A DNA stretch of 64,000 nucleotides from Flavipsychrobacter sp. (GTDB lineage Bacteria > Bacteroidota > Bacteroidia > Chitinophagales > Chitinophagaceae): assembly GCA_037190845.1 (NCBI GenBank), contig JBBCJI010000024.1, forward strand, positions 27,455 through 91,454, given 5' to 3'. Below, piece by piece: positions 29,520 through 62,228 of this stretch; within the stretch, counting starts at the first letter, position 1; each line of letters starts with the position of its first letter. Below the pieces are notes generated by a model, which was not told where the DNA came from, searched no databases, and saw only the letters and a list, made by a program, of their open reading frames with translations. A program made the translations under genes and the position numbers.

Positions 29520-29523
29520 TGTT

Positions 29524-30237: not shown

Positions 30238-30246
30238 CAGATCAAT

Positions 30247-30927: not shown

Positions 30928-30977
30928 CCATTTTCATCAACCAATTTTAAACAATCACACTTAATCATTCAATCTCT

Positions 30978-33023: not shown

Positions 33024-33066
33024 ACAGTGCGGACCTGGTCTGCGATTTTAAACAAAGGAAACATGT

Positions 33067-36000: not shown

Positions 36001-37896
36001 CGCGTGCCCGCACAACTGTTCTGGTTCGGGTTGGAAGAAGAGAGTAAAAACAGGCTGTTGCAGTTGATCAAGGCTGCCTATGCGATCCAGCAGAGCTTCC
36101 CGGGTAATAAGGATTTTGAATTCATGGAGCAGGAAATTGCCGGCCGGTATCAGTCTGCCGGGCTTGCGTATGCGCAGGTGGATGCCGGGCTTGTGGCTCG
36201 CTACCTGTACGATGAGTTTTCCGTGGCCCGCCATTTTACATGCAGCCAGCAGGCGAAGCAGATCCGGAAGGATTTTCAGGAGTTTTTAAGACAGCAGCAC
36301 CGGGCCGATCTCTTTATGGAGGAAACGGGTAATGCCGGTTTTACAGTACAGGAGCGTTTTTATCTGATCCAGCACTGGCTGCAGGCTTATCTGAATTCCC
36401 ACCCGGGAAAGTATGATCCGCGCTATCTGGATGAAGCGGTATGTCTGTTGCTCTTCCCGGATCACGGGTATAAAGAGCGTACGGCATCGGATTATATACT
36501 GGTGGCGGAACTGAAGGGCACGCACAGCGTGATCCATGATCAGCAGTACACCCTGTATTATCATTCTTTCATGGAGAAGATGCGGGCTTATATGCAGGAT
36601 ACGGCGCCGGCCTTTAAGGCTTTTAATGCCCGCAAGGAGGAGCTGGCGAACAGCTACAGGCATGCCTTGAAGATTAATGAGTTTGAACCTAAGGTGCTGA
36701 GTTCCTTTGTGCGGAACCGGTTGATCAACGAAGTCTATTTCCCGCTGATCGGCGCCAACCTGGCGAAGCAGATCGGAGCGGCGGGCGACGATAAGCGTAC
36801 GGCCAGAATGGGTATGCTGTTGCTGGTATCGCCGCCGGGGTATGGTAAGACCACTTTGATGGAATACCTCGCGAGAACCATGGGGCTGCATTTTGTAAAG
36901 ATCAACGGACCTACGATCGGAAATGTCATTACCTCGATCGATCCGGTAGAAGCAACGACCTCCGGCGCGAGGGAGGAGTTGAAGAAGATCAACCTTGCGC
37001 TGGAGATGGCGGATAACGTAATGCTGTACATTGATGATATCCAGCATTGCAGCGCGGCCTTTTTGCAGAAGTTCATCTCTCTGGCAGACGGGCAACGTAA
37101 GATGGACGGCATCTTTGAAGGGGAAAGCAAGACGTATGATCTGCGGGGCAAGCGCTTTTGCGTGGTCATGGCGGGGAACCCTTATACAGAAAGCGGCGAG
37201 CAGTTTAAGATCCCGGACATGCTGGCCAACCGGTCGGATGTATATAACCTCGGCGATGTGATCGGCAATTCGGGGCATCTGTTCCGGCTGAGCCTGATCG
37301 AGAATGCCGTTCAGGAAAACCGTTATCTGCAGCAGATTGCCAACAGGAGCTTTGAGGATCTCTATAAGCTGATCACGTATATCGAAACCCAGTCGGACAT
37401 GCTGCCCGAACTGGAAGGCAACCACAGCAGTCAGGAGGTGGATGATGCGATTGCCGTGCTGAAAAACATCATGTGGATCAGGGATGTAGTGATCCGGGTC
37501 AACCAGCAGTATATTGCCAGTGCGGCGATGAAGGATGCGTACCGGACGGAACCTGCCTTTAAGCTTCAGGGCTCGTACCGGAATATGAATAAAATGGTGG
37601 GCAAGATTGTACCGCTCATGAATCTGGACGAGGTGAAGACGCTGATCCTTTCGCATTACGAAGGCGAAGCCCAGACGCTGACGTCTGATGCGGAAGCCAA
37701 TTTGCTGAAACTGAAAGAGCTGGCGGGGCTGATTACAGAAGACGAGTCAGCACGCTGGGCGCAGATCCAGACCATCTTCCGGCAGAATAATAAATTTGGA
37801 GGGCTTGATCAGTCGGACGTGTCGGGGCAGATGCTGATACAGTTGCATTCGTTTAATGAGCATCTGGAAATGATCGCGAAGGCTTTGAGGAAGTAG
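33067..37896 (+). CDS. Giant (1609 aa) multi-domain protein with C-terminal MoxR/dynein-type (AAA_5-like) ATPase module
   Basis: Beta-rich N-terminal ~420 aa, then about 600 aa of helical/coiled-coil sequence, then Walker A LLLVSPPGYGKTTLMEYLAR and Walker B VMLYIDDIQH with a GKRFCVVMAGNP sensor region. It starts 43 nt after the flotillin stop. Confidence 0.8.
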   Translation: MANTDAGVILDSGTYEIIRNRLHEQRVVLSERLAALNAARKEIFSSEGFELVANQRITTENNGVSRGIIAFGELCIFAYNVHFGLREDIRLDDVFSVYKFTGGHFEPQPLTLISDEQFIADFTNLYKYYRHSIFAKFSRTEHYLYMIFQTGKHVDDRKAFKWLIKDNKLTYVDDRSIHEVRPAAQHDFAWTATSLEDRRLGVHPHISILDKVFIEAVGGDITFKIEDNTDTGKGIYSEPVLNKDQQLDDADYYYADLGNLIAIKIRPYQEDFRTYIYNVRTREVKPIPMLLDAGILLPDNQGVIFPNGYYLQTGEYKIFESDLSDLDFIRTTASPNGEDFLYVFYQRTTNTYVLMSYNVIMQQVETPIICNGFTVFPNGKLIYFRSEQEAVRHHQVQIWQTPYTEVLKENAAMKDNALYKIGNKDIVAAMSESQEVIQLLLKEDSYEGLYEDLYKKSNDIIDAYFWLGNPETFELSAPLSQIRDVASTAIDEFAKVQAQRKHAVEALSAMQSQVDALVSRIKNTKADSLDELVHLLADTRRMQGAVIDLLNIKYVDPEAVQSLKDTLQQYNLSVSQDTVDFLLKDEALLPYEQKVAVQKDKVAGVTKVIDAQEIDQAMKEIAAELELLVDMLSGLKIEDTTETTRIIEKISLIFASLNEVRADLVRVTGALQTKEATGIFHAQITLLEQSIINFLDLSDTPEKCEDYHTRISIQIEELESRFADFEEFVLRIADKRDEAARAFNGKKELLIEQINKRTTSLEQIGLRILKNVENKAQTMTSRESLYAFFSADMMIDKVRSLVNDLREAGDVAKAENLDNLLKVAQEDALRQLKDRTELFVDGHNVIALGAYKFIVNKQVLSLTIIRKDHKLYYHLIGTSFYKEVTEAELYRYRHVWEQELVSETPAIYRGEYLAYQAFLAGLSQDKQWDFAAFINEQVERDYAGGYLKGVHNQDALHIYQYLLRLKESLGILRYAPDVRVPAQLFWFGLEEESKNRLLQLIKAAYAIQQSFPGNKDFEFMEQEIAGRYQSAGLAYAQVDAGLVARYLYDEFSVARHFTCSQQAKQIRKDFQEFLRQQHRADLFMEETGNAGFTVQERFYLIQHWLQAYLNSHPGKYDPRYLDEAVCLLLFPDHGYKERTASDYILVAELKGTHSVIHDQQYTLYYHSFMEKMRAYMQDTAPAFKAFNARKEELANSYRHALKINEFEPKVLSSFVRNRLINEVYFPLIGANLAKQIGAAGDDKRTARMGMLLLVSPPGYGKTTLMEYLARTMGLHFVKINGPTIGNVITSIDPVEATTSGAREELKKINLALEMADNVMLYIDDIQHCSAAFLQKFISLADGQRKMDGIFEGESKTYDLRGKRFCVVMAGNPYTESGEQFKIPDMLANRSDVYNLGDVIGNSGHLFRLSLIENAVQENRYLQQIANRSFEDLYKLITYIETQSDMLPELEGNHSSQEVDDAIAVLKNIMWIRDVVIRVNQQYIASAAMKDAYRTEPAFKLQGSYRNMNKMVGKIVPLMNLDEVKTLILSHYEGEAQTLTSDAEANLLKLKELAGLITEDESARWAQIQTIFRQNNKFGGLDQSDVSGQMLIQLHSFNEHLEMIAKALRK

Positions 37897-37951
37897 TAAA
37901 TCCACTATTTTCTACTGTCTGAAATATGTGGTACTTAGAATCCTTTTCAGC

Positions 37952-39853
37952 TTAAAATAGTTTATTAATTTCGATAAACATTTTTTCAAAATTATCTAAT
38001 GTTGAGGCTGAAAAAAATGTCTTGTCTACGCCTAATTGGTTTAACTTATTTGCTGGTCTGTAATGATTAAATCTATCCTTACCAATTACTTTGTTTATTT
38101 GTTTTAGTATGGTATCAATGCTTGTATCAAGGTCTGTGACCTTTATTTCCGCAAACTCTTTGTCAAACGCAAGGTTAAATAGTTTTAGATATTCTTCTTT
38201 TGTAAACAGGTCTTCGATGTCAGCCGTTTTTGAGCCGTTATTGGAAAATTCATCAAAGAATCTGATGTTTTTGTCCTTGATTATTTTGTGACGAATTAAA
38301 TCTTCAACTCTTTGCTTGCCCTTTTGATCAGTGAACGTATCAAGTAGGCAAACAACATTCAATTTTTGGCCTCTAAGTAGTGAGATAAAAGTGGTAACCT
38401 TATCTAAACCTCCAACAGGAACGATTGTAATATTGTCCTTTAATTTACCCCGTTTTTCTATTTCAAGAATATTTGAAAGAACCGTTAAGTAAAGTAGATC
38501 CGCTGGACCCTCTACTAATAAATTGTGTTTTGAAATAAATAGATTTTGTGCAATGTCATATCCTAATGCAGCTTGTAAGGGGAATAAAGTATCTGGGTCT
38601 TTTTCTTGAATTGTATCTGAAATAATTGTTCCTTCATCAGTTTCAAGGCAAGTACGTACTCTATTTAATTTCTCTGACTCTACCATGAAAGGGGAATGAG
38701 TTGTATAGATGATTTGATATTTTTTTGAAAGATCTTCAATGAAACGAATTAGGTCGCTCTGTGCAGAAGCATGAAGATTTAACCCCGGCTCATCTAGTAG
38801 CAAAATGTAATCAGAATTTTTGTCTGCTTGAATTTTGCTAAACCAAATAATAAAGGAAAAAAACCAGTTAAAACCTTTGCTTCTTCTGTCAAGTGGAAGA
38901 GATATTTTGTGCCTTTGGCTTCTAACGCGAATGTCAAGATACTTTTGATTGTTTTTGTCTTGAATACGAAACTCAATGTCTAAATTCTTGTTAGTTGACC
39001 AATATTTAAAAATTTCGTTAGTAATCTTGTTTGAGGAAGCCTCAAGTAAAGCCACAAATCTTTCATAGTCGCTTGAATTAATGATTTCATCTGGTTTAAT
39101 CCTTGCTAATTCGAATAATGCTTTAGCAGTTTTGGATTTCTCATCATTAGTGCCATTGTTAAGTTCATTTATATCGATTTTCCCCCCTAAATGATAATAA
39201 TCGTCAAAGTACCAAAACTTAGGCATGTTCGGCTGAACCCAATTACGGAATATGTGATATCCTAAAGGATTTTGCCAGTTTGTTTTTGCGGCAGCATCTA
39301 CTAACTTCTTTACTTCTGTCTTTAATGCTGTCAAATCTGTGTCACCTTCTAATTGAGGTATTGCTTCAAGTTCAGAAAGTGAATTCAATTTGTTTATTAC
39401 CTCTCTGGTTTCCTTTGTTAACACTAATGACTGAATTTTAGCGTCTAAATATTTTTTTTGGTTAGCTCCAATGCCAGTAACTGTGTTGCCTTCTTTATAA
39501 TGATAGTTGTAAGTAAATTCTTTTGTTGTAAAAACACCTTTTCCGAATTCTGTGTCAATTTGCGAGAGAAGTTCGGTGCTAATTTCATAAGTACAATTAA
39601 GTATTTCCACATCTTCATCACTATTTTCAAAATCGACCAATTCATTCCTTGGAAAGTCTTGAGTTCTGTCAAACTTGAAATCTGCATCGTCTGTGAAATA
39701 ATTTGTCTTAGCAAGTGCTTGCAAAAAGCTGGTTTTACCTGATTCATTCATTCCGACAATTGTAGTAATTGAAGGTTCAATTTCTACACTTTGAGGTTTT
39801 TGGATGCTTTTGTACTTATTTAACGTAGCATTTTTAAGTTTAATATTCATCAC
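37952..39853 (-). CDS. OLD-family nuclease (N-terminal ABC-type ATPase + C-terminal TOPRIM)
   Basis: Walker A GMNESGKTSFLQAL, Walker B/D-loop ILLLDEPGLNLHASAQ, H-loop TTHSPFMV, then TOPRIM LLVEGPADLLYL ... CLLDTFTD. Local GC is about 25-30%, against about 50% in the flanks. Confidence 0.85.
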   Translation of the reverse strand: MMNIKLKNATLNKYKSIQKPQSVEIEPSITTIVGMNESGKTSFLQALAKTNYFTDDADFKFDRTQDFPRNELVDFENSDEDVEILNCTYEISTELLSQIDTEFGKGVFTTKEFTYNYHYKEGNTVTGIGANQKKYLDAKIQSLVLTKETREVINKLNSLSELEAIPQLEGDTDLTALKTEVKKLVDAAAKTNWQNPLGYHIFRNWVQPNMPKFWYFDDYYHLGGKIDINELNNGTNDEKSKTAKALFELARIKPDEIINSSDYERFVALLEASSNKITNEIFKYWSTNKNLDIEFRIQDKNNQKYLDIRVRSQRHKISLPLDRRSKGFNWFFSFIIWFSKIQADKNSDYILLLDEPGLNLHASAQSDLIRFIEDLSKKYQIIYTTHSPFMVESEKLNRVRTCLETDEGTIISDTIQEKDPDTLFPLQAALGYDIAQNLFISKHNLLVEGPADLLYLTVLSNILEIEKRGKLKDNITIVPVGGLDKVTTFISLLRGQKLNVVCLLDTFTDQKGKQRVEDLIRHKIIKDKNIRFFDEFSNNGSKTADIEDLFTKEEYLKLFNLAFDKEFAEIKVTDLDTSIDTILKQINKVIGKDRFNHYRPANKLNQLGVDKTFFSASTLDNFEKMFIEINKLF

Positions 39854-40028
39854 TCTTCGTTTTCGTAGTTATTTGAATTATTGTCTGATAGTATTACCAC
39901 TAAAGGCTTGGGTATTACCGAAGACGGAGTTCAATACAAAGCTCAATCTTAGAATCGAAATTCAACTTTGGACAAATGCCCAATCGAAGTTCTTCTGCCC
40001 ACTTTGGGTAATACCATGTTAGGGGCTT

Positions 40029-41168
40029 CTATTTTCTGTGATATACCGTCACCTTATTGTTTCTTAAAATCATTAAATAGTTTTTTACTTTGTAATCTTC
40101 CCCTTCTGCATTTTTAATTATTGCATCATAAGTATCATCTGTCAATACATTATAACCAATTCTGTCTTTACATTTTTGATAAACAGATTTCATAAATGAC
40201 TTATTTGCGGCATTCCCAATTAAGTAAATAGTTTCATTTCCATGGTTAATCTTTTCAATGTTTTTTATATAAGTTTGTTCTCCTAGGTTGTTTACTTTGT
40301 ATTGTTTACCAATAATTCTAATTGCAAATTTGCAATACTGTCCGTTAAAGTCATTTATTGAATCTTCTCGTAGTTTTCTATTTGCATAATTATTCAAATA
40401 GCTAATTAGCTGTTTGACTTCATTATATATTTTGTTAGCATCTCGTTTTTGAGCAAAAACTTTCTCTCCTAAAAATGTTAACTCTTGCACAAGTATTGGG
40501 TAGAATATTCCTGCTTTATCTATGTCGTGATATGTTTCAAATAGAGAGGCTATTTTATTATTATCCATCTTCTCTTTCATAAAATCTTGAACGAATTGAT
40601 CAAGAATTTCTGATTTTTCGTGTTTCAGAAGATCATAACAAGCGTATAAATCAAGCGATTCTCTCTGGTATTTGGCGATATATGATTTAGCTTTCCTTAA
40701 AAATGCGTAAGAAATAAATGCCAATGAAGCGTTAACAATGTTCTTGTTTTGATTATCACTCTTATGTAATCTAACTATTAGTTCACCATTTTTAATATAA
40801 GTCTCAGCATTTTGTTTTTCAACATCAACCCAAAAAATATTTATTTTATTAATGTCAATGTGTTTTACTTTTTTAGACACAGTTTTTAGATAGTCATTTA
40901 CTTTCCCTTGAAGGTCATACTTTATATATGTTTTGTCAAATTTATTCGAAACGTAATTCGCGAATCTGGTAATTAATGCAACAAGTTTTTCAAACTTTTC
41001 TGGATTTTTGAGATAATAAATAAAAAGTGCAATCAATGCTACAGTTGAAACAGTCCACATAGAAATATGCAAGTTGAAGTTAAAATTTATGTCGTCAAAA
41101 AGGCTAAAACTTGTGTTCATTAGCATATTCTGTAAATAGTTTAATTGCTTCTGGGCTGTCACAAACAA
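40029..41168 (-). CDS. Hypothetical protein with single N-terminal TM helix, unknown function, in OLD operon
   Basis: 379 aa, K/N/Y-rich and AT-rich, with TM segment MWTVSTVALIALFIYYL. The true start may be an internal Met at 41126 or 41057. It lies 175 nt upstream of the OLD gene on the same strand. Confidence 0.55.
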   Translation of the reverse strand: MFVTAQKQLNYLQNMLMNTSFSLFDDINFNFNLHISMWTVSTVALIALFIYYLKNPEKFEKLVALITRFANYVSNKFDKTYIKYDLQGKVNDYLKTVSKKVKHIDINKINIFWVDVEKQNAETYIKNGELIVRLHKSDNQNKNIVNASLAFISYAFLRKAKSYIAKYQRESLDLYACYDLLKHEKSEILDQFVQDFMKEKMDNNKIASLFETYHDIDKAGIFYPILVQELTFLGEKVFAQKRDANKIYNEVKQLISYLNNYANRKLREDSINDFNGQYCKFAIRIIGKQYKVNNLGEQTYIKNIEKINHGNETIYLIGNAANKSFMKSVYQKCKDRIGYNVLTDDTYDAIIKNAEGEDYKVKNYLMILRNNKVTVYHRK

Positions 41169-41394
41169 TTTTTATGTCACCTGATTCAGGAAAAATTGAA
41201 TAGAGGTTTTCAAAGGTGATTACTTTCCCTGTGAATTTACATTTTAATTTACCTTCATTTAATTTCTCTATCAGTCCTAAATTTTTGAGTAATTGATTTA
41301 GGTCTTCATCATGCACTGCGTTTAGGTTTCTTTTATTCATATCTCTGCCGTATGTAGTCTTCGTTTTTACTGGTAACTTGCATATACTTTCCAT
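41104..41394 (-). CDS. Small (96 aa) hypothetical protein, first gene of OLD operon
   Basis: Clean ORF with non-repetitive sequence, same strand and AT-rich composition. Its end overlaps or abuts the 379-aa gene. Confidence 0.45.
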   Translation of the reverse strand: MESICKLPVKTKTTYGRDMNKRNLNAVHDEDLNQLLKNLGLIEKLNEGKLKCKFTGKVITFENLYSIFPESGDIKIVCDSPEAIKLFTEYANEHKF

Positions 41395-41999
41395 GAACCT
41401 TCGCTTACCCCGTTCATTTTTATGAATAGGCTAAGGTTCATAGAGAGTTGTTTTTTGTACTTTACAAATATAAAATATTTTTACAAAGTTTAAAATGGAG
41501 ATTAAATATTTTGTAAACTCTTTGTGTTTAAATGTGTGTTATTTCCGTAGTGGCTCCTATATCTCCTTTAACCCCGCTCAGTGTATTATGTAATTTATGT
41601 ATTTATATCTTGAATGTAATCTCATTTTTATAATAATAACATTGAATTTCAACAAGAAATATAGATAAATTTACTTGTTGGCATTATCTCCTTCCCCTAA
41701 CTTCGTTACCAGTAAAATATCGCGAACCTTCAATCAATTCGTTGAAGCAATCGCTTTGAATCTCGTATAAAGAAACCTGAGAATTTCAACAGCAACGGGA
41801 TAATAAGTAGATTGCCTGCGTTACGGCGCGGGCGTTCTCTTATTCGTTGCTGTGGGCTTCTCAGGGCCTCTTTATACAATAAGCAGAGCACCGCGCTTTT
41901 TTCATGCCTCAATATTCAGCATCGCAAAAAGCCGCTCCGGGTTCATCGCCGATCTTCACATCAGACAGAAGGTGCGCCTATCGTTCACCTTGCTGAAAA

Positions 42000-42851
42000 A
42001 TGAAGATCATGGATGCCCCGATATACCCCGAACAGCAACAGCCTGCAGACGAGCTGAAGGAAACCCTTAACGCACTGCTCCGCATCGTACCCGCAGATAT
42101 GGTGTTCTGCAAAGACGGCTGCCTGTATATCGTACCCGGCGCCACGGCCGTCCATAGTGTGCACGAGTACAAGGTCATGCTCGACGGCGCCGACTGGAAT
42201 CGTACCGGCTATGTCTGGTCTTTATATGCGCTCGATGACATCCGCAGGGGCATAGACGAAGGGAGGCTGTTTTACAACACGGTGTTCGCCGCGCCCTGGC
42301 TGGTGTACGACAACGGCCGCTCGGCATTGCCGCTTCCCTTGCCCTTACGCGTAGCACAAACGCAGCAGCACGGCAGCGAAACGTTTGTTTTCGGCTACCG
42401 TCAATCGCAGACGTTCTACCGGTGCGCGGCTTCGCTTGGTTCGGCCGAAGAATCGGGCGTGGCGGCGTTTATGCTGCACCAGTCGGTGGAGCTGCTGTTA
42501 CGCGCCTTTATCATCGCCGTAACGGGTCAGGAGGTGAAAACGCATACCCTGTCCGACCTGATGAAGCATACGCTCCGTTATGCGCCGGGACTGAAAGCCT
42601 GTCGTACCGCTTCGGGCACATCGGTCCACCATCTGCCGGACCGGCTGGAAAAGGCTTATGTCTGCGGTCGGTATTCGCCGCATTTCCAGATTGCGCCGGC
42701 AATACTGCCGGAACTGTACGAACAGGTTGGGTTATTACAGGAGGCATTGAAAAAAACATTTGCCCGCCTGATGGAGGCGTATGGGCTTTGCGGCCGGCAG
42801 GAGGCTGCAGTGTTTCATAGATCGGAAGGGATGAAACGGATGTCTGCATAA
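42000..42851 (+). CDS. HEPN-like domain protein (N-terminal domain unassigned)
   Basis: C-terminal ~130 aa FMLHQSVELLLRAFIIAVTGQEVKTHTLSDLMKH...GRYSPH resembles a HEPN helical bundle with an R-x(3-6)-H motif. GC is about 60%. The C-terminal 130 aa are duplicated at 50412..50819. Confidence 0.5.
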   Translation: MKIMDAPIYPEQQQPADELKETLNALLRIVPADMVFCKDGCLYIVPGATAVHSVHEYKVMLDGADWNRTGYVWSLYALDDIRRGIDEGRLFYNTVFAAPWLVYDNGRSALPLPLPLRVAQTQQHGSETFVFGYRQSQTFYRCAASLGSAEESGVAAFMLHQSVELLLRAFIIAVTGQEVKTHTLSDLMKHTLRYAPGLKACRTASGTSVHHLPDRLEKAYVCGRYSPHFQIAPAILPELYEQVGLLQEALKKTFARLMEAYGLCGRQEAAVFHRSEGMKRMSA

Positions 42852-42874
42852 AGCCGGGTGGGCAGGAATCCGGG

Positions 42875-42996
42875 CCATCTTCCGGCAGACAATAAGTTTC
42901 GAGGGCTTGATCAGTCGGGCGACTTGGGGGTAGATGCTGATAATACCCAACTCGTTTAGCGAACATTCGGAAATGATCACGGGGTGGGTGACGAAG
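42875..42996 (+). repeat. Degenerate copy A of the last ~120 nt of the giant AAA gene (compare 37776..37896)
   Basis: By-eye alignment gives about 80% identity over ccatcttccggcaga...ggaaatgatc... It lies immediately after the stop of the HEPN-like ORF. Confidence 0.7.
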
Positions 42997-43115
42997 TTGT
43001 TGGCGAGTAAGATCAGCGGAACGTTATTGGAAGGGTGTAAAAGGTTTTCATCACTATGTGAATTATCAAAACTTTCATTTTTTGCAAGTTTTGATAATTT
43101 CAAAGCATATAGTAT

Positions 43116-43367
43116 TTAGCCATTTTTTTGCTTATCGGCTTTTAGCGCTGCCAAGTGCTTTTTTGCGTCGAAATTTTTGGCAATGCCGCTTTCAATTCCT
43201 ACGTGAATTGCATTTTTCAAAATTTGGATTTTGTTTTCTTCTTCTTCTAAGAGTCGAAGGCCGGCTCTGATTACTTCGCTTGCATTTTTGTAACGTCCCT
43301 GAGACACGCTATTATCAACAAATTCTTCAAAATAGTTTCCAAGTGATACGGATGTATTTCGTCCCAT
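43116..43367 (-). CDS. parD: ParD-type (RHH) antitoxin
   Basis: MGRNTSVSLGNYFEEFVDNSVSQGRYKNASEVIRAGLRLLEEEE is ParD/RHH-like. It is 95% identical to 51200..51451. Its cognate parE is reduced to 6 codons (MAKYYML*) at 43101..43121. Confidence 0.85.
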   Translation of the reverse strand: MGRNTSVSLGNYFEEFVDNSVSQGRYKNASEVIRAGLRLLEEEENKIQILKNAIHVGIESGIAKNFDAKKHLAALKADKQKNG

Positions 43368-43388
43368 GGTTTTGAATTTTTAATAAAG

Positions 43389-43405
43389 TTACCAATATTT
43401 GGTAA
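43389..43405. promoter_or_regulatory. Perfect palindrome TTACCAATATTTGGTAA upstream of parD, a putative autoregulatory operator
   Basis: Seen directly, 22 nt upstream of the parD start, and identical at 51473..51489. Confidence 0.5.
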
Positions 43406-43450
43406 CTCTGGTGCCGGTTTTGTGTTAAAGTTCATGCACACAGCAGCGTT

Positions 43451-43569
43451 TCCAGAAGGATAATAAGTTTGGAGGGCTTGGTCAGTCGGACGGCATGGCG
43501 CAGATGAAGATATGACTGTGCTCGTTTAACGGGCATCCGGAAATGATCGCGAGGGCTTTGAGGAAGCAG
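43451..43569 (+). repeat. Degenerate copy B of the giant gene 3' end (stop codon mutated TAG to CAG)
   Basis: ...ggaaatgatcgcgagggctttgaggaagcag against the original ...ggaaatgatcgcgaaggctttgaggaagtag. It is nearly identical to copy C at 51544..51653. Confidence 0.75.
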
Positions 43570-43633
43570 GCATTTGTGTCAGTTAGTGGAGATAGTTACT
43601 TTTATCCTATCCAAAGCGCCTTGAGGCTGGAAC

Positions 43634-44074
43634 ATGGACAAGCTAATGTTATCAATCGCAATAATTCCAGGGATCTGGATCGCCCTAAAGTTTAGCGGTG
43701 TTTTCCACCGGGTGATTGTCTTTGTGCTTGCCCTTTCTGTTGGATTGGTCTGGAGTGGAGAGCCGCGCATTATTACCGGCAGCTTCATTGCATTTACCTG
43801 TATGGCTATTGGGACAATGGTTTACGCATTGGCGGTTAAGGGGCTTAACAATTATGAAAGAATAAGCATTCTAACCATGGGCTTTTTCGTGGCGACGGGT
43901 TCGATTTTCAAACTTTTGCATTACCCCGGTGTCGGGTTGATCAGGTTAGCTATGGTCATACCTGTGGTCATGACGGTATTAGTCTTTGTGAAAGGCAGGA
44001 GACTAACCCGGGAAATGAGTTTTATGATCATCTGGCTGGTGTATGCGATGTCGGAATGCTTGAAGTTGTACTAA
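43634..44074 (+). CDS. Small 4-TM membrane protein of unknown family
   Basis: 146 aa. It is paralogous to 52594..53115 (shared FSGVFHRVI / RRLTREMSFMIIWLVYAMSE motifs), and its first 50 codons are duplicated at 51718..51873. Confidence 0.6.
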   Translation: MDKLMLSIAIIPGIWIALKFSGVFHRVIVFVLALSVGLVWSGEPRIITGSFIAFTCMAIGTMVYALAVKGLNNYERISILTMGFFVATGSIFKLLHYPGVGLIRLAMVIPVVMTVLVFVKGRRLTREMSFMIIWLVYAMSECLKLY

Positions 44075-44084
44075 CCGATTGAAG

Positions 44085-44630
44085 TTATTTCCATTCCCAT
44101 TTTTCGTCAATGTCATATTTGATTTTCAGATAGGCCGCAAGTTCATCGAGTCTGGTTTTGACGTTGGCAATGTTTACTATTTTGTCCTTTGGCAGTATAA
44201 ATGATTGACCGCCTCTTAGTTTGATAAGTATCATCGTTGGTATCTCGGATATTTCCTCAAGCTCTGTGGTTAACACTTTGCTTTCACTGCCATTTTCCTT
44301 TGCTAAAATAAAATCGTTACTCAGCTCCAATGTTCCAACTTTCCCGATCCGGTCTTTATAGTTTTCCTTAATGAACGCCCTATAATGTTTAATGTAACGT
44401 CGTTTCTCCCAAGCCGGATAAAAGAAAAACCATAGAAGTCCGATAATGATAAAAATAGTTGCCAGTGAAAATTGGTCATCAGAGAAAAATAGAAGTCCCA
44501 AGGCGCCATAAGCTAAAGGAAAAATCGTCTTGTTTTTTTGTCTTTTCTTTTTAATCCGCTCAGATTGTGACGCAAGAAAAAGTTGATGCGTCAGGAGATC
44601 ATGTTCGTTGATTGTATATTCTATTGTCAT
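44085..44630 (-). CDS. YcxB-like small membrane protein
   Basis: 181 aa with two central TM helices. It is AT-rich and is the last gene of the minus-strand helicase cluster. Confidence 0.5.
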   Translation of the reverse strand: MTIEYTINEHDLLTHQLFLASQSERIKKKRQKNKTIFPLAYGALGLLFFSDDQFSLATIFIIIGLLWFFFYPAWEKRRYIKHYRAFIKENYKDRIGKVGTLELSNDFILAKENGSESKVLTTELEEISEIPTMILIKLRGGQSFILPKDKIVNIANVKTRLDELAAYLKIKYDIDEKWEWK

Positions 44631-44765
44631 AGTCTTACGTGAAGTTGTGTGATTATTTTGCGCTTAGTACGCTGAATTTTGAATTAAATAAAAGGCCAGC
44701 CGTCGTAAATGCTCAATAGAGGTACGTTAGCCCTGCATTTGGTTATACGTTGTTAGTGAGTATTT

Positions 44766-46097
44766 TTAATTCTTTTCTCTATTTTTTCTTTGTCTGTTCC
44801 AATCTCCTATCCAACGCATTGGAACAGGTCCTTCATATAATTGTTTATAAAAATGTCTCCAATTCCATGCACTTGTCCCGTCAGTTAGCTTAAGTTCGGG
44901 TATCCACACTTTATCTTCAGGGAAATACGTTGTCGTCCAAACGCCGTCTTTATATGCTTCGATATAACATTTTCCATAGTAGGCAAGTACTGATGGAAAT
45001 AGGCTGTCAAAAAGATTGTAGTTTGTTCCGTTCCATTTGAGTGCTTCGTCCACTAAATCCATTCCTGTGCTGTCAAATGAAAGTTGCTCCTTGTCGAAGT
45101 TGATCAAGGAAGGTAATTGTTCAATAAGTTGTGGCACAAAGCCTGAAAAATTTTGTCCGTATTTATCAGATGTTTTTTGATAAAAATGTTCATGTGTTAT
45201 GGGTTTGTCCATTAATTCTCTGTACTTCTTTTCAGCATCTTTCACTTGTTCAAGGTTGTCATAAATACGTAAACTTAAAATCGACATTTTATTGCCTGCT
45301 CCGTTCTTTTGCTTTTCTTCATCAATAAGTATGTAATAACCCTTTTCAGACTCGTATAAATTCCCGAAAAAGTTGGAAACATATACTTTTCGTTCGGTAA
45401 GCGATAGTCTGTGATGTTTAATTATATCCTTCATGTATTTAGGATAAATCAGATGAAAATCATGTTCGTAGTCCACAAGTCTGTCTCCCGAGGCAATAAC
45501 TTTCATTAAATATTCTTCATCGTCTGAACCATATGCTTCTTCTAGTACAGATGTTTTTTCGGAGGCTAGGGTTTTGATGTCTGGAAAGATAGCTGCTGCT
45601 TGAAAATTTTTAGATTTGTCTAAGAGCAAAATTTGTGCTGTGTTAAGCTGATATACTTCAAAGTCATACCATTGAGGTAAGTCGCTTGTGTACTGTGTTA
45701 ATCTTTTAGGACTTTCTTTTTCAATTATTTGCTTGCCTTCGTCAAATGATAATTCAATTTTGTACGAAACATTTTTTTTTAGAAAATCAATTGTGTTTTT
45801 TACAAACCTAACTCTGTGTAATCTGTTGAAATGCTCTAAGTTTTCAACTAATACAGCTTGTTTATCGTAAAACTCAATCAGGATTTTTCCGTCAGAAAGC
45901 CGGTAAGTTCGTGCTGTCCATTTCTTACGAATAGAATTATCTTGCTCTCCCTTATATTGTTTCAGTGTATTTGTCTTTTCATTACTGTCAAGAAGCGTTA
46001 CGGTAATTGGCAACTTGTCAAGAGTTGTAATTTCCAACTTTTGAGCAAAACTGCTAATCGTTATCAATGTAAAGATGATGGTTAATAATTGCCTCAT
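44766..46097 (-). CDS. Secreted hypothetical protein (signal peptide MRQLLTIIFTLITISSFAQ)
   Basis: About 443 aa from the internal Met. The track start at 46241 adds an Arg-rich extension and overlaps the upstream gene. Confidence 0.55.
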   Translation of the reverse strand: MRQLLTIIFTLITISSFAQKLEITTLDKLPITVTLLDSNEKTNTLKQYKGEQDNSIRKKWTARTYRLSDGKILIEFYDKQAVLVENLEHFNRLHRVRFVKNTIDFLKKNVSYKIELSFDEGKQIIEKESPKRLTQYTSDLPQWYDFEVYQLNTAQILLLDKSKNFQAAAIFPDIKTLASEKTSVLEEAYGSDDEEYLMKVIASGDRLVDYEHDFHLIYPKYMKDIIKHHRLSLTERKVYVSNFFGNLYESEKGYYILIDEEKQKNGAGNKMSILSLRIYDNLEQVKDAEKKYRELMDKPITHEHFYQKTSDKYGQNFSGFVPQLIEQLPSLINFDKEQLSFDSTGMDLVDEALKWNGTNYNLFDSLFPSVLAYYGKCYIEAYKDGVWTTTYFPEDKVWIPELKLTDGTSAWNWRHFYKQLYEGPVPMRWIGDWNRQRKNREKN

Positions 46098-46233
46098 TGC
46101 ATGGCGCTTGTGTGAGGACGCTGCATTCGGGCGACTTTTACGAGTACGAAGTCTCAATTTATACATCAGCTCGCTTATTGCTGAGCTGTTCCTGTGGTGC
46201 CTTCTTGTCTGTCTACTTGTGAATGTCTGCATA

Positions 46234-46731
46234 TTACTCACCCCAAAAATGATAAACTTTTAATGCCGTCCCTTCTCGGTTTAGTACAACGAAACCATTT
46301 TCAAACGTTTCTCGGGTATTGCCTGGCTCTACTTTCAACCAAGTTGTCTTGAAAGTAAATATTCTATTGTCGTTTGATTTCAGTTTGGGTAAAACGTTTT
46401 CGTTTAATAAGTCAAAGGAATAGTCGTCACTTTTTAGTTTAGAAAAGCTGTTGCTGGTTAAAGTGTCTGCCGGGAATAAAATACTGTCTAAAAGCTCCCA
46501 TTCATTTATAGCTGCAAATGCTATTAGTTCTTTGTTTGTAAAAGTACCGCTAGTGTTACTTTGCCAGTTTATTTCCCTGTGTCCTCCCCAAGGCCCCTGG
46601 TCACTATTTTGGTTTGTGATTAAGTCTTTATGGAAATCTGTCCAGAAACCAGCAGGCGTTGATCTATTACAAGAAGTTGCTAAAACGGCTACACAAAAAA
46701 TGGTCAGGAGATATTTCATTATCCGTTTCAA
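46234..46731 (-). CDS. Hypothetical lipoprotein
   Basis: Signal peptide with lipobox-like LATSC; 165 aa. Confidence 0.55.
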   Translation of the reverse strand: MKRIMKYLLTIFCVAVLATSCNRSTPAGFWTDFHKDLITNQNSDQGPWGGHREINWQSNTSGTFTNKELIAFAAINEWELLDSILFPADTLTSNSFSKLKSDDYSFDLLNENVLPKLKSNDNRIFTFKTTWLKVEPGNTRETFENGFVVLNREGTALKVYHFWGE

Positions 46732-46839
46732 TATTGTCTGTTTGTTTCGTCTTTTAATGATTCTTCATTTTAGTTGCATTTTCTACTTCGCGTATGTTCA
46801 TACGAAGAACATCACTTTCCCGCTTTAGTCCCACCATTG

Positions 46840-47514
46840 TTATAGACCGATTTTATTGTCATAACTGAAATATGCTTCAATTTCTGCTCTGTGATATTCA
46901 ACAATCCAGTCATTTCTTTTTATGTAAATGTCCCGAATTTTGTCTGCTTTGTCGCTCCAAACAAAACATCCTCTGTCATCATACATTTGAAATGCTTTGT
47001 CGGTTGCCGGATCGAAAAAGAAAATTCTTTGGTTTATACTCGGGTTAAAGCCCATTTCGTTGTTGGCAATTCCATTCAGAATGTTTTTGACATTGATGTC
47101 TTTAATAGGCAGTTTGCCAATTATAATTCCGACGTTCTCTTTTTCTGGAACGTCATTCCCGTTTTCATCTGTTGTGAAGTAGCGAGTGTTTACCGTTTCC
47201 AATTTATTATAGAATTGCTCGAAGCTGTCGGCAGGAAATTGTTTATGCAAGTAGTCGTTTGAGGCGCTAAAAATATCTTCGTCTTGGTATTCATAAATAA
47301 GAATGAAAATTTCGTGTGTCGAGTCATTAAATGTCTCGTTGAATATTGTCAAAGCCCTATTCGTCGAGTAAGTTACCCGCTCAATTGTCCCATTTTCTTT
47401 TTCTTCTCCAAGTTCAAACCGAATGTGAACATGTCCTCCAAGTGAATGTTCTGTGTCTATTTTCGATCCGGTGTAAACCCTGTCTAAATATGATTGTAAC
47501 TCTTGTCTTAACAT
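46840..47514 (-). CDS. Hypothetical cytoplasmic protein encoded directly downstream of the helicase
   Basis: 224 aa with no signal peptide and no recognisable catalytic motif. Confidence 0.55.
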   Translation of the reverse strand: MLRQELQSYLDRVYTGSKIDTEHSLGGHVHIRFELGEEKENGTIERVTYSTNRALTIFNETFNDSTHEIFILIYEYQDEDIFSASNDYLHKQFPADSFEQFYNKLETVNTRYFTTDENGNDVPEKENVGIIIGKLPIKDINVKNILNGIANNEMGFNPSINQRIFFFDPATDKAFQMYDDRGCFVWSDKADKIRDIYIKRNDWIVEYHRAEIEAYFSYDNKIGL

Positions 47515-47593
47515 TTTGTTCTTGCCTTGTCAGGTTGTTAAAGTGGTTGGTTATTGTGCTTGGATGGGTTGGAGCAGATGAAGCGGTGCTTCC

Positions 47594-50317
47594 TCACCTC
47601 CACTTATTCACATGCTCAATCTTGTCTTCAAATTGTGCAGCCAATGATTTAATCCTTGACTTCAGTAATAATTGTCTTCCCTCGATTGTTCGTGTAAATA
47701 TCAGGTCGCAGGCGCCAACAAGCTGTTCCCATCGGCTTTTGAAATATTCAGCCAGGTTCTTGTTTTTTCCGAGTACCTCAGGAACGGCATGATAATCTTT
47801 TTGTTTCATGAACAGCATAAACCTGTTCTTCCGGATAATTACATATCTGGGGTTCTCAATGGGGGCAATTATTTCCTGCAGCGCATTTATGAAGGCTGAC
47901 TGCTCAAAAGTGGTTCCTCCTTCCAGATGGCAATAAACGGTGCCCCAACGATTCACCGAAGATGCCACTTTCAACTGTGTGACTTCCGTATGAATGGTTC
48001 CTGCCTTAATTAACGACTGCATAAGCGTCTCGCCAATCCGTTGCATGTCTTTTGCAATATCCCGGTATTTGAAGTAGAGTCTGAGTGTTTTGTATGTCAG
48101 TCTGCCGTAAATTACTATTCCTACTGTCCCCAGCAAGGCGATGAAAATATACAGATCATTTATTGTTCTGAAGTTTTTTGCTGCGCGTCCCAGCCCCTGC
48201 AGGCTTTCTAAACCAAAACCTATTAATCCGGAACTCAATGTAGCAAAAAGATTTGCAATTGTCTTTCTCAGGTACATGGATTTGACCTCGCGGTATGATC
48301 TTTCTTCCGGGAATGGGATTTTTATTTCTTCTGTAAGGGTTACGCCGGTTGCCAGCGCTTCTTTCCAGCGCTGTTTCAGACTTTCTCTATCACCGGCATA
48401 AGTAAACATTTCCGTGTTTTTCCTCGCTGCTACAACCTCCTGATGTATGTCTTCCGGTAAATTGAGTCGGCCTATCCCGTTTTCTATTCCGGGTTCTTGG
48501 CTAAAGGAAACCCCTACAAAACTTCTGAAACGACGCTTTAGTAAATCAAAATCCTCGCCTCCTGTCTCCGATGTAGGATCGATACAGACTATATGCCAGA
48601 TATTTCCTGTTTTTTCCTGATTGTCTTTTTGTGTTCGAATCGCTCTCCCGCGCATTTGATTGGACAAAACGAAAGAGCCCACAAAGCTTCCCAGTATTAA
48701 GGAATTGATGGCGGGCGCATCCCACCCTTCTCCCAAGAGTGATTTTGTGCCAATTAAAACTTCAATTTCACCCCGTTGAAAAATCTGGGTAACAATATGA
48801 ACAATATCATTTTTCAGCTGGCCGGTCGGATTGATTATCACGTAATTTGTATCAAAAGGGGCAGTACTCGAATTGATCTGTGTAATTCCATATTTGGCCG
48901 CTTTTGCTTCAAATGCAGGATAAGCTTTTGTGGGAATAATGATTACGGATCCGGTAAGTACGGCCATCTTTTTGTTATCTGTGTTGGACCGTCTTAGTTT
49001 TTCAAAAATGGGTATTACGCCTATCTTGTTTAATTCAAGTGGGTTATCCGGAGTGCTTGTGAGAAACTCTTTCCGGATAAAGTCGGAAAGGATGACCAGG
49101 CGGAGCGAGTTGCCTAACTGTTTATATTCAAAGTCAACAATCTCTTTAATGCTGTTGAGTTTGCTGATACTGGATGTCAGAAATCCGGTTAGTTTTTTGT
49201 TGTGGGAAAAGTTGATTTTTCTTCTTTCAATGGCTCCTGATCTGCGCAGCCGGTTTTCAAGGTGTTTTCTATGTGTTTCAAATTCTTTGAAATGTTCTTT
49301 CCCTTTGTAGAGATAGAAGTCGAGTAGCGTTTCCGTCCATTCGTAGTCGAGTTCCGGTATTTCGATTTTCTTATCGCCTATTACTTCAAGATGGGTTTCG
49401 GGTATATCTCTGCCGTTGGCGTGCAGGAAAATCAAGGAAGCCGAATAAGAGGATAGGTTGTTATAGATCCAGTCTAACTGATCTGCAGGGTTTAACCAGA
49501 TAGGGTGTTGTTCTATCGCCCGGACAATGGTTTCATCACGCTTTATTTCCTGAAACAGTTGCTCCATCCGCAGTCTGAAATCAGCGATGCTTTGGTTTTC
49601 ATCTTCTGTCGGAAAGGTAAAATGCACATAGTCCTGATGTGGGCACAGGTCACCTTCTATCACTAATTCAGGTACAGAAATCTCGGTGTCTACGGGGCCG
49701 TTGAGTGTAATGTATCGCTGCCATTCAGTTGCAGTAACATCATAGGGTGGGGTTGCTGTAAGCCCGACGATCACCGGGTCTGTTTTTTCTTTAACCATTG
49801 TCAACGTTCGCCACCATTCACTTTTCAGGTGGTGAGCCTCGTCTACAACGATAGTTCTGATGTTTTGTTCGATTAGTTTGCTTACAACGTTTTCAAGATT
49901 CTGATTTGTGGAAAGGCCATTGCCATTTTCTGTTGCTATCTCCTCATCTTCAGGGTCTTCATCCTGAATGTTCTGATTGTTGCAGGCGGCGTGCATTCCC
50001 TGGTAGGTAGCGACTGTTAGAAATTTCGGATTCCTGATATCTGTAGAAATCCATTCCGGAGTTATAGTGGTTTGAAGAAAGAGTTCACAAAAGCGTTGTA
50101 TCCACTGGTTGCGAATGGCTATTGACGGGGCAAGTATAAGTGTTGCATTGTTCAGCCGGATAGCTACTTCCAACCCTAAGACCGTCTTACCCGACCCCGG
50201 TGGAGCGATTACGTGTAAATGTTTATCCGTTAAGTGTGTTTCAAGTTCATCAAGTACCCGTTGTTGATATTTTCTCCAACGGTATTTGAATTTTATGTCT
50301 TTGGGAAATTCAGTCAA
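47594..50317 (-). CDS. SF2 DEAD/DEAH-box helicase (ResIII-like N-domain) with C-terminal two-TM segment and about 180-aa tail domain
   Basis: Motif I APPGSGKT, motif II VVDEAHH, motif III TATPP, motif VI QMRGRAIRT. Residues ~690-740 form two hydrophobic helices (LIGFGLESL..., IFIALLGTVGIVIYG). Confidence 0.85.
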   Translation of the reverse strand: MTEFPKDIKFKYRWRKYQQRVLDELETHLTDKHLHVIAPPGSGKTVLGLEVAIRLNNATLILAPSIAIRNQWIQRFCELFLQTTITPEWISTDIRNPKFLTVATYQGMHAACNNQNIQDEDPEDEEIATENGNGLSTNQNLENVVSKLIEQNIRTIVVDEAHHLKSEWWRTLTMVKEKTDPVIVGLTATPPYDVTATEWQRYITLNGPVDTEISVPELVIEGDLCPHQDYVHFTFPTEDENQSIADFRLRMEQLFQEIKRDETIVRAIEQHPIWLNPADQLDWIYNNLSSYSASLIFLHANGRDIPETHLEVIGDKKIEIPELDYEWTETLLDFYLYKGKEHFKEFETHRKHLENRLRRSGAIERRKINFSHNKKLTGFLTSSISKLNSIKEIVDFEYKQLGNSLRLVILSDFIRKEFLTSTPDNPLELNKIGVIPIFEKLRRSNTDNKKMAVLTGSVIIIPTKAYPAFEAKAAKYGITQINSSTAPFDTNYVIINPTGQLKNDIVHIVTQIFQRGEIEVLIGTKSLLGEGWDAPAINSLILGSFVGSFVLSNQMRGRAIRTQKDNQEKTGNIWHIVCIDPTSETGGEDFDLLKRRFRSFVGVSFSQEPGIENGIGRLNLPEDIHQEVVAARKNTEMFTYAGDRESLKQRWKEALATGVTLTEEIKIPFPEERSYREVKSMYLRKTIANLFATLSSGLIGFGLESLQGLGRAAKNFRTINDLYIFIALLGTVGIVIYGRLTYKTLRLYFKYRDIAKDMQRIGETLMQSLIKAGTIHTEVTQLKVASSVNRWGTVYCHLEGGTTFEQSAFINALQEIIAPIENPRYVIIRKNRFMLFMKQKDYHAVPEVLGKNKNLAEYFKSRWEQLVGACDLIFTRTIEGRQLLLKSRIKSLAAQFEDKIEHVNKWR

Positions 50318-50411
50318 GTAAGCCTTAGTTTTTATTGTACAGGCAGTAATATACGGCTTTGTTTTTAATTGTTGTTTTATGTAGGCTTTGCGCGTGACAG
50401 GCTGACTTTCA

Positions 50412-50819
50412 GTGTGCTTATTTCATAATGGTTTGTTCCTGCTGCACCAGTCGGTGGAACTGCTGTTACGCGCCTTTATCATTGCCGTAACGGGGCAGGA
50501 GGTGAAAAGGCATATCCTGTCGGATCTGATGAAGCATACGCTCCGTTATGCGCCGGGACTGAAAGCCTGTCGTACCGCTTCAGGCACATCGGTCCACCAC
50601 CTGCCGGAACGGCTGGAAAAGGCCTATGTCTGCGGTCGGTATTCGCCGCATTTCCAGCTTGCGCCGGCAACACTGCCGGAACTGTACGAACAGGTAGGGT
50701 TATTACAGGATGCATTGAAAAAAGCATTTGCCCGCCTGATGGAGGCGTATGGGCTTTGCGGACGGCAGGAGGCGCCAGTGTTTCATGCATTAGAAGGGAT
50801 AAAACGGATGTCTGCATAA
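50412..50819 (+). pseudogene. 3' fragment of HEPN-like gene (copy of 42472..42851), GTG start only
   Basis: About 93% identical to the C-terminal 130 aa of 42000..42851. Homology begins abruptly at 50442. Confidence 0.5.
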
Positions 50820-50907
50820 ACGCATGTGGGCAGGAATTTAGGCCACCATTCTTTTGTCTTCTTTTGGATACCTCAGATTTTTCTGAGCAAGAGAACAAAA
50901 CGAGTGT

Positions 50908-51207
50908 TTATTCACTCAATCGCTTTTTCAAATCCATCCTTTCGTGTAAAATTCTAATTATTTCAACTTCTTTATCGCTGACTTTTCGATAAAAGACAAT
51001 GTGCTTTCCAGCTCCAAATCCAACAAGCTCTTTTGAAATTTCTTCGTAGATTTTTCCGATAGTTGGTCTTTTTGCGATTGCTTCAAACGCTTCAATTAAA
51101 AGTGCATAGTACTGGTCTGCCTGATTTTCAGACCAGATCTCATAAGTATAGTCCCAAATTTTGGATAGGTCTTCGACTGCTTTATTGGTTAAATAGTATT
51201 TAGCCAT
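50908..51207 (-). CDS. parE: ParE/RelE-family toxin
   Basis: 99 aa. MAKYYLTNKAVEDLSKIWDYTYEIWSENQADQYY...IVFYR is a ParE-like fold pattern. It overlaps parD by 8 nt. Confidence 0.8.
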   Translation of the reverse strand: MAKYYLTNKAVEDLSKIWDYTYEIWSENQADQYYALLIEAFEAIAKRPTIGKIYEEISKELVGFGAGKHIVFYRKVSDKEVEIIRILHERMDLKKRLSE

Positions 51208-51451
51208 TTTTTTGCTTATTGGCTTTTAGCGCTGCCAAGTGCTTTTTCGCGTCGAAATTTTCGGCAATGCCGCTTTCAATTCCTTCGTGAATTGCATTTT
51301 TCAAAATTTGGATTTTGTTTTCTTCTTCTTCTAAGAGTCGAAGACCGGCTCTGATTACTTCACTTGCATTTTTGTAACGTCCCTGAGACACACTATTATC
51401 AACAAATTCTTCAAAATAGTTTCCAAGTGATACGGATGTATTTCGTCCCAT
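51200..51451 (-). CDS. parD: ParD-type (RHH) antitoxin
   Basis: 83 aa, near-identical to 43116..43367. Confidence 0.85.
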   Translation of the reverse strand: MGRNTSVSLGNYFEEFVDNSVSQGRYKNASEVIRAGLRLLEEEENKIQILKNAIHEGIESGIAENFDAKKHLAALKANKQKNG

Positions 51452-51472
51452 GGTTTTGAATTTTTAATAAAG

Positions 51473-51489
51473 TTACCAATATTTGGTAA
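51473..51489. promoter_or_regulatory. Palindrome TTACCAATATTTGGTAA (second copy of parDE operator)
   Basis: Seen directly. Confidence 0.5.
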
Positions 51490-51543
51490 CTCTGGTGTCG
51501 GTTTTATGTTAATGTTCATGGACACCACAGGATTTTCGGTGGG

Positions 51544-51653
51544 GCAATAAGTCTGGAAGGTTTGGTTGGTAGGATGGCTTGGGGCAGATGAAGATACGAC
51601 TGTGCTTGTTTAACGGGCATCCGGAAATGACCGCGAGGGCTTTGAGGAAGCAG
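51544..51653 (+). repeat. Degenerate copy C of the giant gene 3' end
   Basis: Aligns to 37776..37896 and is almost identical to copy B. Confidence 0.75.
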
Positions 51654-51717
51654 GCATTTGTATCAGTTAATGGAGATAGTTACTTTTATCTTATCCAAAG
51701 CGTCTTGAGGCTGGAAC

Positions 51718-51873
51718 ATGGACAAGCTAATGTTATCAATCGCAGTAATTCCAGGGATATGGATCGCCCTAAAGTTTAGTGGTGTTTTCCATCGCGTGAT
51801 TGTCTTTGTGCTTGCCCTTTCTGTTGGATTGCTCTGGAGTGGAGATCCGCGCATTATTACAGGTAGCTCTTGA
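51718..51873 (+). pseudogene. Truncated 5' fragment (51 codons) of the 43634-type membrane protein gene
   Basis: MDKLMLSIAVIPGIWIALKFSGVFHRVIVFVLALSVGLLWSGDPRIITGSS*. Identity with 43634..44074 ends at the duplication boundary. Confidence 0.5.
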
Positions 51874-52580: not shown

Positions 52581-52593
52581 GATAATCGCTCGT

Positions 52594-53115: not shown

Positions 53116-53325
53116 TTATTTCAAAATGAATATTTGTTCGGGTGTGACCATTCGAATTATAGGAAATAATCCGTTTGTCGGGAGCCGCTGACACTGAAAC
53201 GCTGTTTATATAGATTATCCCGGTATTGCATAGCACAGCAATTGCATGTACATTTATTAAATGGTTTCTGTCAGGGTGTGTGAATGCCCGGCGTAAGGTC
53301 ATACTATTGTTTAATTTATTCGCAC

Positions 53326-58740: not shown

Positions 58741-58744
58741 TCAG

Positions 58745-62153: not shown

Positions 62154-62228
62154 CAGCAAGAGCTGCTTTATGTATAAAGCAGCATGTCTTTCTAATTTTA
62201 ACCTTTTGATCGCCGGATAATTTAAAAT

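Follow-up and report, generated by a model that had tools for sequence, protein, structure and literature searches.

In Escherichia coli K-12, the element e14 begins 165 nt before the stop codon of icd, and beyond it lies icdC, a 165-nt pseudogene with 92.7% identity; of the 12 differences between icd and icdC, 11 fall at third codon positions. In staphylococci, staphylococcal cassette chromosome mec (SCCmec) and pseudo-SCC elements insert serially at the 3′ end of rlmH (orfX), with repeats at their boundaries and some units lacking a recombinase, and both the ccr serine recombinases and a short defined integration-site sequence are known. Cis-mobilizable elements (CIMEs), which are integrase-less islands flanked by attachment (att) sites, occur in tandem, as described for ICESt1/ICESt3 at fda and for streptococcal tRNA-Lys (PMC7563491), and the Dehalococcoides ssrA islands are serial, partly integrase-less and bounded by repeats of the target end (PMC3146451). 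Here, we analysed a 64-kb stretch of DNA (the window) from Flavipsychrobacter sp. (GCA_037190845.1, contig JBBCJI010000024.1, positions 27,455-91,454; all coordinates below are window positions unless another locus is named), in which the 3′ end of a gene for a 1609-aa AAA protein, hereafter the giant gene, recurs in degenerate form downstream of the gene. We propose, with an even chance of being right, that these copies are the attR-like scars of at most two old integrations at an attachment site inside the giant gene, and that the present layout owes as much to duplication, deletions and scar-free addition of cargo as to integration.

The giant gene, the recurring unit and its copies are as follows:
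33067 to 37896, plus strand: giant gene, 1609 aa, with DUF3686, DUF7902 and AAA domains (Pfam)
37757 to 37775, plus strand: L, the segment of the giant gene left of junction J, matched by 19-nt stubs after both HEPN copies
37776 to 37896, plus strand: R0, the live last 40 codons and stop codon, the unit that recurs (BLAST, alignments)
42859 to 42996, plus strand: remnant A, an L stub (42859-42877) contiguous with R_A (42878-42996), with frame-breaking indels and the stop codon changed to TTG
43449 to 43569, plus strand: remnant B, R only and no L stub, with an internal TGA and the stop codon changed from TAG to CAG
51534 to 51653, plus strand: remnant C, a duplicate of B (85% identical to B overall), with the stop codon changed from TAG to CAG

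When 37700-37960 was compared with the whole window by blastn, exactly three extra copies of the giant gene's 3′ end (~120 nt) were detected, all on the plus strand: A at 42868-42981 (77%, E 2e-16), B at 43450-43569 (80%, E 4e-24) and C at 51546-51653 (75%, E 3e-13), the remaining matches being noise of 11-25 nt with E > 0.5. The remnants align codon by codon with the gene end, which encodes the C-terminus ...FRQNNKFGGLDQSDVSGQMLIQLHSFNEHLEMIAKALRK*, and all of them end at the position of its stop codon, where the MAFFT alignments place CAG in B and C and TTG in A. An earlier note on this DNA had claimed four gene-end copies in the same orientation and a TAG to CAG change in B and C; blastn confirms the former, with coordinates right within a few bases, and the alignments agree with the latter. 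A profile hidden Markov model (HMM) built from the four copies found no fifth one in the window, and in 1.83 Mb of fetched loci it matched only the genuine gene end of each homologue, while an exact DNA pattern taken from the repeat had 0 matches in metagenome contigs.

The remnants are 72-79% identical to the resident gene end and at most 65% identical to the gene ends of 57 other species, and the Met codon of ...HLEMIAKA is present in all remnants and in the resident gene, and in none of the 57 other species (0/57). The sharing of this lineage-specific codon indicates that the remnants derive from the lineage's own gene, and comparison of the gene ends supports the view that the copies are pseudogenised 3′ ends of the resident gene lineage. 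In the motif FR[K]NN, B keeps the consensus Lys codon and both A and the live gene have Gln, a pattern that is consistent with the distal remnant being the older. A and B/C share nine states unlike the live gene, two of them at residues invariant in other species and most of them synonymous or ancestral-like; polarising the shared substitutions for one versus two displacement events gave conflicting signals from too few sites.

Two of the three remnants lie within a larger repeated segment. Comparison of the window with itself revealed two direct repeats, 42472-42877 with 50440-50845 (406 bp, 92.4%) and 43109-43784 with 51193-51868 (block d, 676 bp, 93.2%), which together form one ~1.4-kb segmental duplication holding both B and C. 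The first repeat covers the last third of the HEPN gene and the 26 nt that follow it; the second carries ParD with its upstream region, then remnant B or C and, after a further 64 nt, the first 51 codons of the membrane-protein gene p146. Copy I has the whole of HEPN and p146, whereas in copy II each gene is cut off where the block ends (HEPN on its 5′ side, p146 at codon 51); between the blocks, copy I has remnant A and a 112-nt spacer, and copy II has ParE. The features within the two copies are:
42997 to 43108, no strand assigned: spacer x, with a 12-bp-stem hairpin (~43063-43097), which replaces ParE in copy I
43109 to 43367, minus strand: orphan ParD (43116-43367) plus the first 5 codons of the deleted ParE (43109-43123)
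50440 to 50845, plus strand: copy II HEPN 3′ part, in frame, 126 codons, plus an L stub (50827-50845), 92.4% identical to 42472-42877
50846 to 51533, minus strand: intact ParE (50908-51207) and ParD (51200-51451), with their own terminator-like hairpin and promoter region
51718 to 51873, plus strand: p146-like 5′ fragment, 51 codons, marking the end of block d

The homology of the two copies extends into the flanking genes, the novel junctions lie inside genes, and the orphan ParD is identical to the ParD at 51200-51451 at 80 of 83 aa. Since B and C lie inside this shared duplication, they represent one remnant copied with its neighbours rather than independent scars, and the helicase cluster (43785-50439), bracketed by the duplication, is not delimited by independent att scars. 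The repeats therefore do not each mark an integration, and the sequence would allow at most two independent remnants, A and B/C. The earlier note had taken the OLD island, the ParD remnant and the helicase cluster as successive arrivals, but with B and C belonging to one duplication and no more than two events in all, three is an over-count.

The arrangement is not an assembly artefact, because it is reproduced in other contigs. One contig of another assembly (L119) corresponds to window 37222-44535 and spans the whole of copy I, a second independent contig of that assembly (L073) matches window 46407-51738, thereby crossing the novel junction 50439|50440, and two short-read Logan contigs, which break inside the repeats, reproduce the same layout. 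This junction lies at the edge of the homology and not within it. Although B and C are 96% identical in their right halves, their left halves (43449-43500 and 51534-51584) are only ~68% identical, and elsewhere copies I and II agree at 97% in ParD and ~94% in the flanks; this excess divergence adjoins the breakpoint.

The breakpoints of the copies converge on one position of the giant gene. After the HEPN stop codon, both copies read TGGGCAGGAAT(CC/TT)(G/A)GGCCA, which matches the giant gene at 37757-37775 with 15/19 identities in copy I and 13/19 in copy II; the chance of a 15/19 match at a fixed position is ~1e-6. Beyond this stub, copy I runs on into gene sequence, so that A is contiguous across the junction 37775|37776 (J), whereas copy II switches to the 3′ flank of ParE, and the 0.69-kb ParE-ParD unit precisely fills the gap from the L stub to remnant C. 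From 37776 onwards B and C are homologous to the gene, and ParD promoter DNA lies to the left of this point. J therefore acts as a breakpoint in three junctions. A resemblance of spacer x to ParE or to the giant gene's own downstream region was considered and discarded, being weak, AT-rich and not convincing.

These same-orientation repeats of the gene's 3′ end, all ending at the gene end, bound DNA of foreign composition, which is arranged, together with the distal flank, as follows:
37952 to 41168, minus strand: cargo 1, an OLD-family ATPase/TOPRIM nuclease (37952-39853) and a 379-aa protein, p379 (40029-41168) (Pfam/PADLOC)
41374 to 42857, plus strand: cargo 2, a conserved leader with a long hairpin (41745-41905) and a HEPN-domain gene (42000-42851)
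43634 to 50439, both strands: cargo 3, p146 (plus), and p181, p491, p165, DUF3885 and a 907-aa ResIII/DEAD helicase with its upstream region (minus)
51951 to 61096, both strands: distal flank, a Zn-ribbon protein and p173 (minus), alpha-2-macroglobulin and PbpC (plus), GC 42-50%

The genes for the OLD nuclease, which has AAA_15 and TOPRIM domains, and for p379 have a GC content of 28-34%, and of 31% taken together, versus ~50% in the host, and the hairpin+HEPN module, which is found at variable sites in other Bacteroidota, has one of 50-57% (57% in the HEPN gene itself). The GC content of the cargo as a whole thus spans 28-57%, and its gene content is of defence or toxin-antitoxin (TA) type.

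The copies with their boundaries, the duplication in which two of them are nested and the foreign make-up of the cargo are directly observed, and a search for a recombinase found none; the site-specific mechanism and the order of events are inferred. The attachment site would lie inside the giant gene, ~121 nt upstream of the stop codon, and integrating DNA would have brought its own last 40 codons, so that the gene was rebuilt while its previous end was pushed downstream and decayed. The older displaced end could be the ancestor of B and C and the younger one could be A, and an element carrying the hairpin+HEPN module as its right end would have left the complete hybrid site L|R_A; the recombinase gene would later have been lost, or would always have acted in trans. 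The ~8-kb duplication, from mid-HEPN to the helicase cluster, would have arisen in tandem or through recombination of diverged alleles and yielded the second HEPN-end/L-stub/ParD/remnant block. Deletions would have removed ParE from copy I, R_A-x, which is absent from copy II, and the second p146-helicase copy, and the low-GC OLD and p379 cargo would have been added without a scar.

The four same-strand copies that end at the stop codon, with none elsewhere, and the coincidence of the breakpoints at 37775|37776 argue for this reading. So do the gene sequence that A preserves across J, the descent of the remnants from the lineage's own gene, the older state kept by the distal remnant B, the foreign defence/TA-like cargo, the integrase beside a related HEPN module in L120/L121, and the precedents of e14, the CIMEs and the ssrA islands. 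Several observations weigh against it. No tyrosine or serine recombinase was found among the ~50 open reading frames (ORFs) of the window by Pfam, tblastn with a Bacteroidota integrase gave nothing, and none occurs in the 5.6 kb beyond the window, in line with the earlier note, to which no integrase was visible either. Neither a remnant nor a detectable integrase of this type occurs within 10 kb downstream in any of 71 species-level loci (0/71), which were collected by scanning genome contigs with the C-terminal 599 aa of the giant protein, and the gene-end peptide was not found in the viral contigs scanned. The differences between the remnants and the live gene fall on all codon positions, with indels in A and stops in B and C; the remnants thus decayed neutrally, and nothing shows that the displaced ends were alternative functional ends. 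Furthermore, the stretch from the gene end to A is composite, with no remnant separating OLD+p379 from the HEPN module, the cargo from A to B amounts to only ~450 bp with an orphan ParD, and A reaches 19 nt further left than B and C. In the decayed sequence upstream of A and of B/C, no core or element-side motif common to both can be recognised. The gene-3′-end integration proposed by the earlier note is partly supported: the geometry, the foreign cargo and the clustered breakpoints stand, while no recombinase was found and none of the 71 loci has a remnant.

The sole link of the locus to a recombinase is provided by the HEPN module. At two other loci (L120 2165-4614 and L121 1011-3460), a 70%-identical HEPN module is convergent with a tyrosine integrase gene 350 nt away, which encodes a 420-aa protein of Bacteroidota type with Arm-DNA-bind_5, SAM_5 and Phage_integrase domains and lies at the element edge by dapD. 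The position of the HEPN module beside an integrase at an element end is compatible with a terminal module of an element family whose integrase was lost here. The module of L122 and L125/126 instead lies upstream of fabD, next to variable cargo. Among the HEPN homologues found elsewhere, none lies beside a gene-end copy and one case lies beside an integrase, and the HEPN gene was not found in viral contigs. A likeness of the 3′ flank in L128 to the L|R region was rejected by a shuffling test.

The alternative that survives best, although we consider it rather unlikely, dispenses with a site-specific recombinase: a local tandem duplication or amplification starting ~120-140 nt before the stop codon, or a Campbell-type single crossover of a circle from a related strain, would have repeated a unit running from the gene end to HEPN, and cargo replacement, deletions and neutral decay would have followed. 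Such a process accounts for the periodic array L|R0...HEPN-L3|R_A...HEPN′-L3′|...R_C, and both units end in the same junction of HEPN stop and L stub at 92% identity, as repeated copying would give. A real duplication of ~8 kb is present, no recombinase was found, all remnants come from the genome's own gene lineage, and the nine states shared by A and B/C, including the two at invariant residues, are compatible with a single remnant. However, the units have only HEPN in common (OLD/p379 versus ParD/p146/helicase cluster), so that several extra replacements would be needed, the placing of ParE-ParD precisely at the nucleotide from which B is homologous to the gene, with the L stub on one side and R_C on the other, would be an unexplained coincidence if breakpoints were random, and the GC range of the cargo indicates several foreign sources.

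Less probable still, and in our view improbable, is that J serves as a cassette insertion point supplied in trans by a recombinase encoded elsewhere, integron-like or host-encoded, through which small cassettes such as ParE-ParD (0.7 kb) and larger cargo enter the live site or old remnants and rebuild the gene end. This would explain why the 0.69-kb ParE-ParD of copy II interrupts at J what would otherwise be one continuous remnant, leaving the L stub on one side and R_C on the other, and why no recombinase is encoded locally; loosely similar sequences of ~11 nt (CCATTCTTTTG / GGATTTTCGGTG) also flank ParE-ParD, and TA cassettes are typical of cassette arrays. On the other hand, only four copies are present, the repeats have no attC-like structure (no secondary structure, attC-like or other, beyond that of shuffled controls, z -0.45 to +0.45), and the putative core is too decayed to be judged. 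Moreover, copy I keeps 5 codons of ParE, so that an ordinary deletion must have set at least one edge of the variable segment, and no such arrays occur at the homologous gene in the 71 species. As a known class, an integron or CALIN array (a cluster of attC sites lacking an integrase) was rejected in the absence of attC structure and integrase. Orphan C-terminal cassettes of the Rhs/CdiA type were also rejected, as the remnants are decayed versions of the conserved C-terminus, contain stops and indels, and lack any variable domain.

A dispersed repeat family (REP/MITE/attC), or a merging of two strains in the assembly that would have produced B and C as an artefact, is very improbable: the assembly is metagenome-derived and short-read contigs do break inside the repeats, but the window and the 1.83 Mb of loci hold no other copies, no palindromes occur, the alignment is codon-wise, and L073 recovers the junction 50439|50440 while L119 spans copy I. 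The earlier note had named a REP/MITE family as what would overturn its reading, and by profile HMM and folding the copies are not one, being only four in number, on one strand, all downstream of the parent gene and aligned to its coding sequence.

Old att-type integration, the reading that we prefer, would place the attachment site in the last gene of a conserved operon. The giant gene is the final gene of a module of HTH protein-(YbjN-like)-PspA-YqiJ-like-p681-giant at window 28332-37896, and the HTH-PspA-YqiJ-like-p681-giant module is kept in 46-59 of the 71 species loci and is widespread in Bacteroidota. Downstream of the giant gene, these 71 loci share no conserved neighbour. The host is of a Chitinophagaceae/Chryseolinea type within Bacteroidota; the best C-terminal identities of giant homologues are 74-84%, all 71 species loci being at most 84% identical at the aa level, and the nearest relative in a protein search with the C-terminal 299 aa is 83% identical. 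No closer relative or empty site was found in the genome, metagenome and protein collections searched, and exact-protein look-ups of the giant protein, ParD I/II, HEPN, Zn209 and PNPOx returned only contigs of the same organism. No mention of DUF3686 was found in the literature searched.

Homologues of the giant protein at 45-50% identity also occur in Planctomycetota, Blastocatellia and others. In an Agriterribacter metagenome-assembled genome (MAG), a solo ORF of ~400 aa (L046 9947-11206) shares 84% identity with the AAA region at the C-terminus of the giant protein and stands in an unrelated context, without the N-terminal 1200 aa and without the operon; a split gene, a truncated copy and a large 3′ fragment that was displaced are all conceivable. 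The protein search with the C-terminal 299 aa returned many matches of 290-520 aa, with short ATP-binding proteins in complete genomes (e.g. Kaistella carnis). In a Chitinophagaceae MAG, a tandem array with a ~22-nt unit lies directly 3′ of the giant homologue (L023 11884-12054).

The leader of the HEPN gene (41374-41999) contains a hairpin of ~160 nt (41745-41905) with a minimum free energy of -72 kcal/mol (z = -7.7), which is conserved upstream of HEPN homologues in four loci, the window, L120 1908-2062, L122 1751-1905 and L125 9753-9905. RNAalifold predicted 46 pairs, 11 of them with compensatory double changes, and the hairpin matched no Rfam family; its role may be that of a cis-regulatory leader or of an RNA that partners the HEPN protein. 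Searches of the window for tRNA/tmRNA and Rfam families found nothing.

As for the other cargo, the homologues of OLD in 45 metagenome loci (38-85% identity) never occur together with p379, the giant gene or a gene-end copy, and those of ParE, the nearest being 76% identical, belong to a widespread family and are uninformative. The cluster p146-p181-p491-p165-DUF3885-helicase (43634-50317) has weak PADLOC matches only (PbeA-like, E 3e-12, for the helicase), and it is possibly an uncharacterised defence system. p146 (43634-44074, plus strand) and the flank gene p173 (52594-53115, minus strand) are paralogues with 32% identity, which hints that the giant gene's native neighbour may be p146 together with the sequence that follows B/C. 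Downstream of pbpC, at 61374-62951, lie two adjacent paralogous genes of 259 and 240 aa, ~40% identical to each other.

If the att-type reading is true, the DUF3686/AAA gene in this PspA-linked operon would offer, at its 3′ end, an integration target not reported before in Chitinophagaceae-like Bacteroidota, and the locus would illustrate in detail how a defence island is assembled through scars, duplication and cassette loss once the recombinase has gone. If instead the cassette explanation is true, an integron-like array anchored in a protein-coding gene would be stacking defence and TA cassettes in Bacteroidota. Repeated gene-end copies should be checked for nesting in larger duplications before integration events are counted. 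Gene-end-restoring integration, accretion and integrase-less islands are already well known, and the finding is therefore of local rather than general interest.

Compared with the described systems, the locus resembles defence-island hotspots in having cargo of foreign GC content (OLD nuclease, HEPN, ParDE, helicase cluster) beside a conserved operon, whereas in such hotspots the cargo is swapped by flanking homologous recombination and no flanking gene ends are repeated. Unlike SCCmec, it has no identified recombinase or core sequence. It is similar to the CIME and ssrA islands in that islands stand in series 3′ of the target with direct repeats of its 3′ end, and many of those islands are likewise without recombination genes and are thought to have decayed or to be mobilised in cis or in trans. 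Their repeats, however, are short and well conserved (e.g. 20 bp), and integrase-bearing relatives and empty or alternative sites are documented, while two of the three repeats here stem from a secondary segmental duplication. Although e14 carries intE/xisE and has a single displaced end, while the present locus has no integrase found, two or three remnants at 72-80% identity with changes at all codon positions, stops and indels, and defence/TA cargo instead of a prophage, its layout is shared: as with e14 and phage 21 at icd, the attachment site would lie in the 3′ end of a protein gene, the element would replace the last ~120-165 nt, and, as with e14, the displaced end would persist at the far border as a same-orientation pseudogene that ends at the stop codon.

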